Part shown: positions 22,331-26,141 of the stretch, one piece after another
Position numbering within the stretch: position 1 is the stretch's first letter
How the letters are laid out: every line of letters begins with the position of its first letter
Source of the DNA: Candidatus Thorarchaeota archaeon
GTDB taxonomy: Archaea > Asgardarchaeota > Thorarchaeia > Thorarchaeales > Thorarchaeaceae
Reading direction: 5' to 3'
DNA: 26,141 nucleotides
Assembly: GCA_003345595.1 (NCBI GenBank)
Contig: PRDI01000097.1
Coordinates: 1 to 26,141, forward strand
Made by a program: the position numbers and the translations under genes
Notes under the pieces: model-generated
Told to the model about the DNA's origin: nothing
The model's input: the letters and a program-made list of their open reading frames with translations, nothing else
Database searches by the model: none

Positions 22331-24292
22331 TTACGGCAGTCCTGTCAACCACTTGACAATCTTGAGCGCCAGTACATCATCATCATGTGAACTGTAGCGG
22401 CCGGCCATGCCCCAATTGTCGACAAAGAAGTTGGACCCGGTCACAACTATTCGACCTCCGCCGCCTCCTTGCCTGCAGGCCAAGACTGTGCCCGAGTTAT
22501 ACCGAGCAAGAGACACCGCGCCTATTGGAATGGCTATGGTCGATCCTAGATAATCGAAATCACTCACTCCTACGGTTGTCGGATGCGTAGTGATGTCGGT
22601 GATAAGCGCTGGCGAGTCTCCAGACGGGACGCTTGTGTAACTCAGGGAGAATCCTGTCCAGTTGAGAAAATCGTTCAGTGAGCTGATGTCAACACTGTCG
22701 TTGGAGAGAGCGGCCACGAAGATACCGTGACCTGCGTCGAAGTACTGCTGGTAGGCTTCCTCTTCTGCCTGAGAGAACGGGATCGAGAATATCACTGGTG
22801 CAAGTGGCTCTGTTTCATTCAATTCCCAAGTGCATGGATCCAGCAACAAGACGGCGTCATACTGCGATAGAGATTCGAAGGTTGTTGCAGAACTATTGCG
22901 CAGCTCGGTCACTGAAATCGAGTTCGATGTCAGTTCCGTGTAGAGTTCCTTGAACTGCCCATAGACAGTGTCCATTGACCATGCAGTGTGACTGATATCA
23001 AACGCTACTCGTGCAGCGGGAGTTGTGACATTGAAATCGACACTGACATTGGCGCTTCCGCCGGTTTCCGACACGAACTGGATTTCTGCACTGTATACGG
23101 CGGAACCGTTGCTAGGAACTTCAACCATCATAGGAATCAGGCCTGTCTGATTGATGGTCACGGCCTCCGGCACGTGAAACACGCTTGGAGTGACAGTCAC
23201 AACCTGAACATCAAAGACTGCGAGCTTAGTCGTGAAGAGGGTCAACTCAAACTCATAGGCATCCCCGTAGAAGAGTTTCTCGAAATCCAGAGGTAGGCTC
23301 ACTGGTGACACATAGGCCAAAGCAGGAAGGCCTTGAAGGTTTGTACTCTGTGCTATCAATTGTATAGATCTGTCCACATTGAGTGCTCCTGCACCAACCA
23401 TGTACTCTGGCCAGGGGATTGGGTCTGCACCTTTTAACAGAGCAGTCATCACAAGACCTGGTGTCCATGATCGGTTGTTCGCAAGACAGTATGCCACAAT
23501 GTCCGCCGCGGCCGCAGCAACCCTAGGAGATGAGAATGAAGTGCCATAGTATATGGTTGTCGTAGTTTCAGTATATCCGAGCGCGGCGATGTCTGGTTTC
23601 ATGTACCTCGATTGAGTTGGTCCGAAGCTAGTGAAGTAGTACGGGTCGTTCTTGTCGTCGATACCTGCAACAGAGAGACAGGCTGGGAAGACTCCTGGCG
23701 ACGCGATACTGGTCCCTGCAATCCCGCTGTCCCCTTCATTGCCTGCTGACGCAACGACAATCACGCCATGGGAAAATGCATACTGAACAGCCTGCTGGCC
23801 TGGATCCCCAAAGGTAGGTGTCGAACCTATCGAGAGATTGATGACACTGCAGTTCTGTTCAATCGCCCAGTAGATAGCTGCTATAATCCCGGCCGTGGTG
23901 GCTGAACCTTGAGGCCCAATCACCTTTGCAATGACTAGGTAAGCGCTGTCGCTCTCTGCGGCGATCAGCGTGGAAACGAGTGTCCCGTGCGGCACGCCAT
24001 CAGGCTCAGCATCACTCGTGGACGCATCATTCAGGTCATAGCCATACTCCGTACTGACGAAGCTCTTCTGTGCAACCACTCTGTTCTCGAGACTAAGACC
24101 GACGTTTATCCCGGAGTCAATTACCCCGACTCTCACAGATTGGCTGGATGGGCCAATTGGAATCAACCCCAGCAGGATCACCATGCCTGTGGATACTACA
24201 ATCAGCAGTATCACGATTACAGCGAGCAGCTTTGTAACGCTTGTCGACGACCCTCGTCTGGAAGCAACAGGGGTTTCCCAGTATCTATACAC
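22331..24292 (-). CDS. Membrane-anchored subtilisin-like S8 serine protease with C-terminal GATase-like/DUF4350-like domain (Site-1-protease-like architecture)
   Basis: Catalytic motifs VIDSG, HGT, SAGN, GTSFSSP; N-terminal TM; C-domain RVAFDISH...LSQYDAVLLLD...GRIVVTG. GTG 24292 after AGGAG is preferred to 24364. Confidence 0.9.
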   Translation of the reverse strand: MYRYWETPVASRRGSSTSVTKLLAVIVILLIVVSTGMVILLGLIPIGPSSQSVRVGVIDSGINVGLSLENRVVAQKSFVSTEYGYDLNDASTSDAEPDGVPHGTLVSTLIAAESDSAYLVIAKVIGPQGSATTAGIIAAIYWAIEQNCSVINLSIGSTPTFGDPGQQAVQYAFSHGVIVVASAGNEGDSGIAGTSIASPGVFPACLSVAGIDDKNDPYYFTSFGPTQSRYMKPDIAALGYTETTTTIYYGTSFSSPRVAAAAADIVAYCLANNRSWTPGLVMTALLKGADPIPWPEYMVGAGALNVDRSIQLIAQSTNLQGLPALAYVSPVSLPLDFEKLFYGDAYEFELTLFTTKLAVFDVQVVTVTPSVFHVPEAVTINQTGLIPMMVEVPSNGSAVYSAEIQFVSETGGSANVSVDFNVTTPAARVAFDISHTAWSMDTVYGQFKELYTELTSNSISVTELRNSSATTFESLSQYDAVLLLDPCTWELNETEPLAPVIFSIPFSQAEEEAYQQYFDAGHGIFVAALSNDSVDISSLNDFLNWTGFSLSYTSVPSGDSPALITDITTHPTTVGVSDFDYLGSTIAIPIGAVSLARYNSGTVLACRQGGGGGRIVVTGSNFFVDNWGMAGRYSSHDDDVLALKIVKWLTGLP

Positions 24293-24533
24293 ACCTATTC
24301 TTCTCCTGTCAATGCCAAAAGAATCTGTCGGAGCCTGTAACACCTGCAACCATTGCGATAACACGTTTACGTGCTTTTGAACGGGCTTCTGCAGAGCGTC
24401 CAGGTACTCGGCTCAAAGAAGCTTCAAAAGGTATGTTCATGGGAAGTACAACGCTCAAGACTGCCTGGACCTGTTACAAGTTGCTTTATCTGTGAGCGCC
24501 GTTCAGAGTGCTTATCCGACCGAGGGACATATC

Positions 24534-26141
24534 TTGTCAGAGAAGGACGCCATCACGACCTCACTGACCGCATGTAGGTTTCAATGCATTCCTCTCGACG
24601 ATGTCCTCAACACTCTCTCTGTCGATTCGAGAGTCGGACTATCGGACGATGACGTGAGGACTCGTCTTCAGAAGTATGGACCCAATACATTGCCAAAGGT
24701 AAGAGGTTCCTTCTGGAAGGTCTATCTTGCACCCATTCTCAACTGGCTGATAAACATCTATCTCATGAGCTCAGTGGCGTTGATTGCGCTCGCATTCCTG
24801 TTTCCCTCTGGGGAGAACCAGCTGGGAGAAGCCACACTCTGGTTGAGCGTTGTGGCAATCAACTGCTTGGTGGCAATCTTCCAGCAGTACAGGGCGCAAA
24901 AGAAGCTGGAAGCACTCGAGAAGCTTTCTGCGGGTGAGTCACGAGTCATCCGTGGTGGGCGGGAGATGAAGATAGACCCCACGTTGATTGTTCCCGGCGA
25001 TATCGTCAAGCTGGAACAAGGGGACAAAGTACCGGCCGATGGGCGAATCGTTACGTCTACAAACCTCAGTACAAACGAGGCTTCATTGACTGGTGAGAGC
25101 GTTCCGAACTCGAAGGATCCCAGAGCAATCGTAGAAGCAGAGGCACCCTTGACCGACATGAAGAATATGGTCTTCTTTGGCACATATGTTTCGACCGGAA
25201 CTGCAGTCATTGCTGTGACTATGACAGGCGCGTCAACCGAGATCGGCTTGATTCAGGGCGAGCTTGAGGAACTGAACACGGGTGACATCCCGCTCCGCAA
25301 GAAGGTCAATATGCTAGCGAAGTTTCTGGGCATTGCTGCGTTGGTCCTCATGGGCGTATCGGTTCTATGGCGGACCATCATTCGTCCGATGCTCTCTGGC
25401 CAGCTTCCAAATTTCGCTCCGGCCGCAATCGCCGCCGACCTAACGGATGGGATAACAAGGGCGATGACAATAATGCCCATCAATATCCCTCTACTCACGA
25501 CGATTGTACTATTGACTGGGGTTCTTGCCATGGCGAAGAAGGCGGTGATCATCAGGGACCTATCGGCAATAGAGAGTCTCGGACGAGTGAGCGTGATATG
25601 TTCGGACAAGACCGGTACAATGACTCGTAATCAGATGACCGTCAAGTTCTGTTGGGACGGTCGGGATCTCTATACTATCACTGGTGATGGGTACGAGCCG
25701 CTAGGGGAGATATATCGGCTCAAGGATTTGCCTGTCACAGACTCGACGATTCCACCAAATGCTGTCTTGGTCAATGATGTTGAGGGCTCGAAGGGCCTGT
25801 ACAAGCTTGTGCTCTGTGGTGTGATAGACAATGATGCAGAAATCAGCCAGAAAGAGATAGTTGGGCAGGGCGTCGTATGGTTTCCAATTGGAGATCCGAC
25901 TGACGCCGCTCTCCTTGCTCTCTTCCGCAAGAGTGGTCTAGATGAGGGTGAGATCAAGAGGAAGTACAAGGTAGTGAAGGAGTTTCCATTCGAGTCGGAG
26001 CTCAAGCGAATGTCCAAAATATGCTATGACGGCCAGAAGTTCATTGTTTTTGTCAAAGGTGCGACAGAGGTCATCTTGCAGAGGTGCACAATGATCAGCA
26101 GCGGGGATCGGGCTTCGAAGCTAGCGCCTGAAACTGCGACG
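24534..26141 (+). CDS. P-type ATPase, P2-like scaffold with atypical M4 motif (3'-truncated by window edge)
   Basis: Missing from the ORF track because it has no stop in the window. TTG 24534 after GAGGGA; GLS....RLQKYGPN, VPGDIV...GDKVPADGR, LTGES (TGES 25089-25100), PINIP (25476-25490), DKTGT (25605-25619), GDPTD.AL, FPFES.LKRMS, KGA (26055-26063). Confidence 0.93.
   Translation, partial: MSEKDAITTSLTACRFQCIPLDDVLNTLSVDSRVGLSDDDVRTRLQKYGPNTLPKVRGSFWKVYLAPILNWLINIYLMSSVALIALAFLFPSGENQLGEATLWLSVVAINCLVAIFQQYRAQKKLEALEKLSAGESRVIRGGREMKIDPTLIVPGDIVKLEQGDKVPADGRIVTSTNLSTNEASLTGESVPNSKDPRAIVEAEAPLTDMKNMVFFGTYVSTGTAVIAVTMTGASTEIGLIQGELEELNTGDIPLRKKVNMLAKFLGIAALVLMGVSVLWRTIIRPMLSGQLPNFAPAAIAADLTDGITRAMTIMPINIPLLTTIVLLTGVLAMAKKAVIIRDLSAIESLGRVSVICSDKTGTMTRNQMTVKFCWDGRDLYTITGDGYEPLGEIYRLKDLPVTDSTIPPNAVLVNDVEGSKGLYKLVLCGVIDNDAEISQKEIVGQGVVWFPIGDPTDAALLALFRKSGLDEGEIKRKYKVVKEFPFESELKRMSKICYDGQKFIVFVKGATEVILQRCTMISSGDRASKLAPETAT

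Follow-up and report, generated by a model that had tools for sequence, protein, structure and literature searches.

An aspartate of transmembrane helix M6 and a glutamate of M4 are the textbook cation ligands of the P2 and P3 classes of P-type ATPases. Plant P3A H+ pumps read PIAMP in M4, with Ile at the position of SERCA E309, and P4 pumps are without the buried M5 and M8 glutamates and the charged, ligand-rich cavity. For the ENA pump NcENA1, S339, I341, P342, A343 and S344 of M4 (that is, IPAS) have been proposed as ligands (PMC10779151), and a review describes P4 and P5 pumps as eukaryote-only, with no resemblance to prokaryotic P-type ATPases (PMC10654040). A survey of transporters in Asgard archaea reported orthologs of a 'putative Ca2+ ATPase' in all five proteomes examined (PMC7997004). 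Here we analyze a P-type ATPase gene of Candidatus Thorarchaeota archaeon (assembly GCA_003345595.1) that runs to the end of contig PRDI01000097.1 and whose M4 motif is PINIP; the whole contig, 26,141 nucleotides in length, is referred to as the window.

We found no description of a PINIP family in the searchable literature, nor any relevant paper on P4 or P5 pumps in Asgard archaea. Judged from sequence comparison, the best explanation of the data is that the window gene is the 5′ part of a functional P-type ATPase from an Asgard-wide subfamily that branched from P2A-like cation pumps, and we estimate a probability of about 0.7 that this is an active pump whose single rebuilt site takes a small cation other than Ca2+. 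A conserved clade, present in the majority of the genomes sampled from the archaeal phylum that is nearest to eukaryotes, appears to have exchanged the textbook ligands for His and Ile-Asn with its catalytic motifs intact, which makes it a candidate new specificity class or subfamily of P-type ATPases.

The window holds the 5′ part of a pump gene

The open reading frame of the pump starts with GTG at 24492, with an alternative TTG at 24534 that is used by the public gene call. In this frame, codons 324-343 (25461-25520) encode AMTIMPINIPLLTTIVLLTG, so that the position and frame given for PINIP in a preliminary description of this DNA proved exact; the TGES, FQQYRAQ and ICSDKTGT motifs listed there are likewise each present in frame. 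Pfam assigns to the window protein the domains Cation_ATPase_N, E1-E2_ATPase and Cation_ATPase. The features of the gene are the following.

24492-26141, + strand: P-type ATPase gene, 5′ part, 550 codons (~57%), open at the 3′ end (open reading frame list, sequence)
24591-24776, + strand: Cation_ATPase_N (PF00690), the P2/P3-type N-terminus, residues 34-95 (Pfam E = 5.7 × 10−11)
24711-24800, + strand: M1 (helix 66-95 of the ortholog model; column statistics)
24819-24923, + strand: M2, ending in FQQYRAQ at 24879-24899 (sequence, column statistics)
25089-25100, + strand: A-domain dephosphorylation motif TGES, in its P2/P3 form (sequence)
25419-25538, + strand: M4 with unwound PINIP at 25476-25490 (sequence; helix break at the motif in the model)
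25605-25619, + strand: phosphorylation motif DKTGT with Asp372 of the window open reading frame (sequence; invariant in the alignment); ICSDKTGT is at 25599-25622 and the codon of the phosphorylated Asp at 25605
25875-26096, + strand: N-domain (Cation_ATPase, PF13246), including KGATEV (Pfam E = 1.1 × 10−19)

C97, the contig that makes up the whole window, belongs to an assembly of 2.7 Mb with 83% completeness. Its end truncates the gene after residue 550, so that helices M5-M10 cannot be read in this copy. DNA and protein searches of the assembly with the 3′ half of an ortholog found no 3′ half of the pump gene. As a surrogate for the window gene we used protein P0268 (locus L020), a full-length ortholog from the same genus (975-981 amino acids, 91% identical to the window protein over 541 residues), taken here as its 981-residue stop-to-stop frame, in which a residue number plus 8 gives the window residue. 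The ratio of nonsynonymous to synonymous substitution rates (dN/dS) between the window gene and this ortholog is 0.13 (542 codons), and the window copy is thus under purifying selection.

Contig ends cut two more P-type ATPase genes of the same genome, at C39:2-409 (+ strand) and C79:1-1233 (− strand). The piece on C39, a 5′-open C-terminal fragment, was considered as the missing end of the window gene and rejected, as it has no blastp match to the PINIP family. The piece on C79 is an N-terminal half with PEGLQ in M4 and TGEA, and the two pieces may be halves of one gene.

The transport site is rebuilt across the family

PINIP is kept in 113 of the 116 homologs that span M4, down to 41% identity (the other three read PMNIP, PLNIP and PINLP), and is therefore due neither to chance nor to sequencing error. 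We compared 84 non-redundant family members with 45 relatives that have PEGLP in M4 in one alignment, with positions numbered by P0268. At the ligand positions, the two groups have the following residues.

322 (SERCA E309, M4): I in 74/84 family members; E in 45/45 relatives
323 (SERCA G310, M4): N in 81/84 family members; G in 43/45 relatives
753 (SERCA N768, M5): N in 80/84 family members; N in 44/45 relatives
756 (SERCA E771, M5): E in 84/84 family members; E in 41/45 relatives
783 (SERCA N796, M6): T, V, F, S or Y in the family; N in 43/45 relatives
787 (SERCA D800, M6): H in 83/84 family members; D in 42/45 relatives
886 (M8, E908 column): E in 79/84 family members; Q in 30 and E in 11 of the 45 relatives

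Position 886 was placed in the E908 column from this alignment, and we take the SERCA M8 sequence to align to it without gaps. Aligned by HMMER with Listeria LMCA1 and with the non-gastric H+/K+-ATPase, the family likewise has the 'INLxE' of M5 on N768 and E771, and the His of M6 on the Asp of D800.

Fixed differences between the family and the relatives are confined to 11 of the 981 columns, of which one is in M1 (P for Q), two are in M2 (Q for E, A for G), three in M4 (I for E, N for G, L for A) and one in M6 (H for D), seven in all. The M1 change belongs to a family-specific YLAP(I/L)xN that stands in place of the Q-F-x-D of the relatives; here Q is replaced by P, and the Asp, present in about half of the relatives, by N. 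At the M2 position of SERCA E109, which is Glu in the relatives, 77 of the 84 family members have Gln. In these alignments, the changes cluster on the transport site and its cytoplasmic entrance, which is the pattern of a specificity switch and not of decay.

The catalytic motifs TGES, DKTGT, TGD and GDGxND are intact family-wide: of the 82 full-length homologs, 81 have TGES, and 80-82 have the P-domain motifs TGD and GDGxND together with ten transmembrane helices, as does P0268. Each of the 22 full-length copies taken directly from genomes, among them the two copies of tandem pairs, bears the signature of the family, and position 310 is always small and polar in these copies (N, or S/T in one lineage). 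In the taxonomic family f5 (L042, L043 and L048), M4 reads PITIP or PISIP, and the M6 His and the M5 N..E are retained.

Because three canonical ligands are lost, one might think of an ATPase that has degenerated or no longer transports, such as a sensor or regulator without an ion site. This is very improbable: the replacement residues are nearly invariant (N in 96% and H in 99%) among sequences that are only 35-45% identical, the catalytic motifs are intact, dN/dS is 0.13, and the family is retained in most genomes of the phylum, often as tandem copies.

Profile and structure comparisons

Comparison of five full-length family members with NCBIfam models gave the following score ranges.

TIGR01522, PMR1-type Ca2+: 423-476 bits (cut-off 798)
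TIGR01116, SERCA-type Ca2+: 407-490 bits (cut-off 703)
TIGR01523, ENA-type Na+/K+: 393-446 bits (cut-off 645)
TIGR01517, PMCA-type Ca2+: 376-409 bits (cut-off 507)
TIGR01647, P3A H+: 292-354 bits (cut-off 615)
TIGR01657, P5: 204-254 bits (cut-off 618)
TIGR01652, P4 flippase: 84-147 bits (cut-off 431)

Only the generic model TIGR01494, with a cut-off of 62 bits, is passed: the window fragment scores 128 bits and full-length relatives score 261-299 bits. The M4 motif of P5 pumps, PP(E/D/A/V)xP, is not matched by PINIP.

An AlphaFold2 model of the ortholog (predicted local distance difference test score (pLDDT) 91.5, predicted template-modelling score 0.87) has ten transmembrane helices, with M4 unwound at the motif. 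The top 50 Foldseek matches of this model are all P2 pumps (SPCA1, SERCA, LMCA1, Na+/K+ and H+/K+), and matches in the ESM Atlas are to generic P2 clusters only. In a second structure ranking, independent of Foldseek, whole-pump Z scores, which depend on the conformational state and separate P-type classes weakly, were as follows.

PfATP4, P2 (Na+ efflux): Z 33.4, 25% identity
SERCA2, P2A: Z 30.7, 30% identity
AHA2, P3A: Z 30.3, 22% identity
SPCA1, P2A: Z 29.2, 32% identity
LMCA1, P2A: Z 29.0, 30% identity
MgtA, P3B: Z 29.0, 23% identity
P4 flippases: Z 24-27, 17-18% identity
P5B: Z 26.4, 18% identity
P5A: Z 21.2, 19% identity

The sequence, the curated hidden Markov models (HMMs) and the pLDDT-91 model show that the scaffold is P2; placement by subfamily is by HMM scores and structural ranking.

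With the P2A pumps (LMCA1, SPCA1/PMR1 and SERCA1/2), the family shares its best PDB sequence matches (E = 1.6 × 10−122 to 1 × 10−100), its best Foldseek matches (28-29% identity, TM-score up to 0.82), the domains Cation_ATPase_N, E1-E2, Cation_ATPase, Hydrolase and Cation_ATPase_C, the ten transmembrane helices, TGES, and the M5 N..E and M8 Glu as in SERCA site I. It differs from them by PINIP for PEGLP, the loss of N796, His for D800, the replacement of Q, D and E by P, N and Q at the M1/M2 entrance, and scores far under the TIGR01116 and TIGR01522 cut-offs.

The ENA-type P2D pumps (fungal ENA1, with PfATP4 as structural representative) resemble the family in that TIGR01523 is its second-best NCBIfam model, PfATP4 is the top whole-model structural match, and M4 of ENA has no Glu and a small polar residue at 310 (PMC10779151). 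Unlike the family, PfATP4 retains all SERCA-type ligands (PMC12537908), and ENA keeps the M6 Asp (D860 in NcENA1) where the family has His; the family is also under the TIGR01523 cut-off. P3A pumps (AHA2, Pma1) are similar in structure (to AHA2) and in a conserved M2 Asn, but identity is 22%, TIGR01647 scores reach at most 354 of the 615 bits, and the M6 Asp that is needed for P3A proton transport is His in the family. As read from these positions, the family fails the defining site features of P2A, P2D and P3A.

Loss of the M4 glutamate and the flippase question

Because ENA Na+ pumps and plant H+ pumps are without it, the loss of the M4 Glu is not diagnostic of a flippase. Among the P4 and P5 features that we tested, the family shares only the hydrophobic residue at the E309 position. 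In P4 pumps (Drs2, ATP8A1, Neo1), which have the same overall P-type fold, this Ile is also followed by a polar residue (PISL vs. PINIP); however, the family retains the second Pro of the motif, and the feature is found in cation pumps as well. The A-domain motif DGET of P4 is TGES in the window and in 81 of 82 homologs, PhoLip_ATPase_N and PhoLip_ATPase_C (PF16209 and PF16212) are absent from the Pfam lists of the family, and TIGR01652 is among the weakest P-type models for the family, below the heavy-metal P1B family model. The P4 cut-off was passed in 0 of 201 genomes of the phylum (best score, 84 bits). No Cdc50-like neighbour is conserved in 21 loci; this covers the neighbourhoods and not whole genomes, and P4B pumps do without such a subunit. 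The buried Glu of M5, Glu of M8, Asn and His, of which P4 pumps lack the glutamates, are retained in the aligned sequences and make up a cation-type site.

We consider it improbable, given these profile, motif and site differences and the 17-18% identity to P4 chains, that the family is a convergent flippase-like pump of a lipid, hydrophobic or bulky substrate, in which a hydrophobic M4 gate would open an M1-M2-M4-M6 groove as in P4 and P5. Such a pump would fit the Ile at the E309 position, as in the PISL of P4, with one lineage reading PISIP or PITIP, an M1/M2 entrance stripped of acidic residues, and Z scores to P4 chains (24-27) that are not far under those to P2 chains (29-33), though these are state-dependent. 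Less probable still is an Asgard-wide pump of hydrophobic or bulky substrates that would represent among prokaryotes the Glu-less M4 design of eukaryotic P4 and P5 pumps, or would even be its stem; if true, it would provide a prokaryotic counterpart for P4 and P5 pumps, which are now said to have none. The present data do not contradict the view that P4 and P5 are eukaryote-only.

The preliminary description had proposed an uncharacterised pump with a non-cation, possibly lipid or hydrophobic substrate, and a flippase-like candidate intermediate between P2 and P4 or a convergent case. Its first part is supported, as an uncharacterised pump with an altered, non-Ca2+ site on a P2 scaffold. The lipid or hydrophobic substrate is disfavoured by the HMMs, TGES, the domains and the buried Glu/Glu/His/Asn, and the intermediate is not supported, with TIGR01652 scores of 84-147 vs. 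431 bits and an identity of 17-18% to P4 vs. 28-32% to P2A. The checks that it had suggested gave a P2 fold nearest to SPCA1, SERCA, LMCA1 and PfATP4 on modelling, PINIP Asgard-wide and close homologs without PEGLP on a search for homologs and their taxonomic range, and, at the M5, M6 and M8 positions as read in orthologs, no full Ca2+ site, as D800 is His and N796 is lost. It had also allowed for a protein that falls in a characterised subfamily; no curated subfamily model claims this one.

Proposed mechanism and transported cation

Because the catalytic machinery is canonical, a normal E1/E2 (Post-Albers) phosphoenzyme cycle would be expected, with phosphorylation of the DKTGT Asp, TGES-mediated dephosphorylation, and participation of the TGD and GDGxND motifs. 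In the transport site, the ligands of Ca2+ site II are gone: E309 is replaced by Ile, and N796 by a non-ligand residue that varies (T, V, F, S or Y in most cases). Acidic or polar residues at the M1/M2 entrance have given way to Pro, Asn and Gln. Site I is kept but remade: the M5 Asn and Glu and the M8 Glu stay, an Asn is gained in M4 (G310), and an invariant His takes the place of the M6 Asp (D800) that cation pumps otherwise have. One small cation per cycle could then pass through a site-I-like Glu/Glu/His/Asn/Asn pocket. Two to three negative charges would be gone from the path and the site, which argues against Ca2+. The M6 His might act in the transport of H+ or a monovalent cation, as a carrier that can be protonated or as a built-in charge, or it might be a ligand of a borderline metal (Mn, Fe, Co, Ni or Zn).

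As to the cation itself, we see two candidates of nearly equal weight, each short of an even chance: protons or monovalent cations (Na+, K+, NH4+), slightly ahead, and borderline divalent metals for which His is a favourable ligand (Mn2+, Fe2+, Co2+, Ni2+, Zn2+). The choice between them is undecided, as the polar N/S/T at 310 better suits alkali-cation or proton chemistry and the His better suits a transition metal. The other pumps of the same genome have canonical PEGLP/NLATD, PEALP, MgtA-like PELLP, PEELP, PEGLQ and CPC motifs; with other Ca2+-type pumps thus present, the PINIP pump has an additional function.

Several points weigh against a small-cation pump with a rebuilt site. The groups of the column statistics were defined by the motif itself, the M5-M8 residues were read in the 91%-identical ortholog and not in the window gene, and the proposed ligand cluster comes from homology with pumps of solved structure, not from measured distances. 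No metallochaperone, regulator or beta-subunit was found as a cross-lineage neighbour in the 21 loci, and there is no characterised relative. Moreover, neither candidate group of cations fits perfectly, since transition metals are poorly bound by Asn, Ser and Thr, and a His ligand would be unusual for Na+ or K+.

The retained site-I ligands (N768, E771 and E908) would also allow a hard divalent cation (Ca2+, Mg2+ or Mn2+) to be pumped, with the His as a tuning residue or built-in charge. The nearest solved relatives are Ca2+ and Ca2+/Mn2+ pumps and the top NCBIfam scores are to PMR1-type and SERCA-type models, and under this explanation the public 'Ca2+-ATPase' label would be roughly right. 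It is nevertheless unlikely: the position of D800, a residue that links the two Ca2+ sites, has Asp in 42/45 relatives but His in 83/84 of the family, E309 and N796 are gone and the acidic residues of the entrance neutralised, scores with the Ca2+-pump equivalog models are far under the cut-offs (466 vs. 798, 419 vs. 703 and 403 vs. 507), and canonical PEGLP/NLATD pumps are already encoded in the same genome.

The labelling as a Ca2+-ATPase that the preliminary description anticipated is found in JGI, which names relatives 'Ca2+-transporting ATPase'. If the small-cation pump proposed here is correct, the automatic Asgard 'Ca2+-ATPase' labels, on which arguments for Ca2+ signalling of a eukaryote-like kind have drawn (PMC7997004), cover at least two kinds of pump. 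Knowing the substrate would inform Asgard membrane physiology and how P-type selectivity gets rebuilt.

Distribution and origin of the family

Among the 120 best homologs, the labels are those of Thor-, Hod-, Loki- and Heimdallarchaeota and of 'Promethearchaeota', and complete sequences are ~950-962 amino acids long; further members are named as Hel- and Odinarchaeota. A strong match is present in 176 of the 201 sampled genomes of the phylum, where the family proper was defined as matches above ~740 bits. Two members carry labels from elsewhere, one of Korarchaeota (P0125, 982 amino acids, on a 156-kb contig, with PINIV in M4) and one of Bathyarchaeota (P0079, 683 amino acids, partial), and are due either to rare transfer outside Asgard archaea or to mis-binning.

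An exhaustive phmmer search of 1.84 billion representatives shows a sharp boundary of the family. Above ~540 bits, most representatives combine a Glu-less M4 of the form P-x-(N/S)-x-P with the M6 His, and a few such members (P0154, P0155 and P0159) score down to ~495 bits; apart from two divergent exceptions (PIMIP with 'HD', and PVSIP with Gln), the remaining representatives below ~520 bits have PEGLP and Asp. A tree built from 134 sequences separates the family from the rest by a single branch with support 100, where the groups are trait-defined and the few columns of the trait were kept in the 932-column alignment. The basal members read PW(N/S)FP and P(V/F)NFP and already have the His, together with a polar residue at 310; from this single, fully supported clade it follows that the rebuilding arose once.

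In the FastTree tree, a pump from contig C64 of the window's genome lies nearest to the PINIP clade, a position that may reflect long-branch attraction. This pump (an 876-amino-acid frame, partly covered in L004 and L012) has PEELP in M4, 'SVKVA' in M5, with Lys for Asn, and 'LLEMFMD' in M6.

Tandem pairs are frequent in the phylum. They were seen in L046 (6995-9892 and 10918-13785, − strand) and L047 (6995-9880 and 9993-12845, − strand), and also in G025:C86, G141:C50 and G121:C53. The members of a pair come from different subclades, with 'ITLH(T/M)FPG' vs. 'GIVH(A/S)LPS' in M6. The tandem copies point to an old duplication after which both copies were retained.

Genomic neighbourhood

The gene upstream of the pump in the window is transcribed divergently from it, across a gap of 127 nucleotides.

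22331-24364, − strand: S8 subtilase, 677 amino acids, membrane-anchored by an N-terminal transmembrane helix (Peptidase_S8, E = 2.4 × 10−32)

This subtilase (cluster c1) lies beside the pump in 7/7 loci of the taxonomic family of the window (f1) and in 0/14 loci elsewhere, and across the 21 loci no partner gene is conserved between lineages. The neighbours met in these loci are the S8 protease, a UFL1-like protein, PanB, MFS, LonB, an M29 peptidase and Oxidored_molyb.

Loci of the Thor family encode, as the next gene downstream of the pump, a protein of ~655 amino acids, a eukaryote-signature protein with a weak Pfam match to E3_UFM1_ligase (UFL1-like, E = 2.3 × 10−9). Its gene is at L035:9893-11854 (+ strand) and is also present in L031, L033 and L036, at a position that corresponds to just past the end of the window, and is followed by a ketopantoate hydroxymethyltransferase gene. 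In two taxonomic families (L037, L038, L040 and L041), a gene for a molybdopterin-oxidoreductase-domain protein of ~198 amino acids lies at most two genes from the pump.

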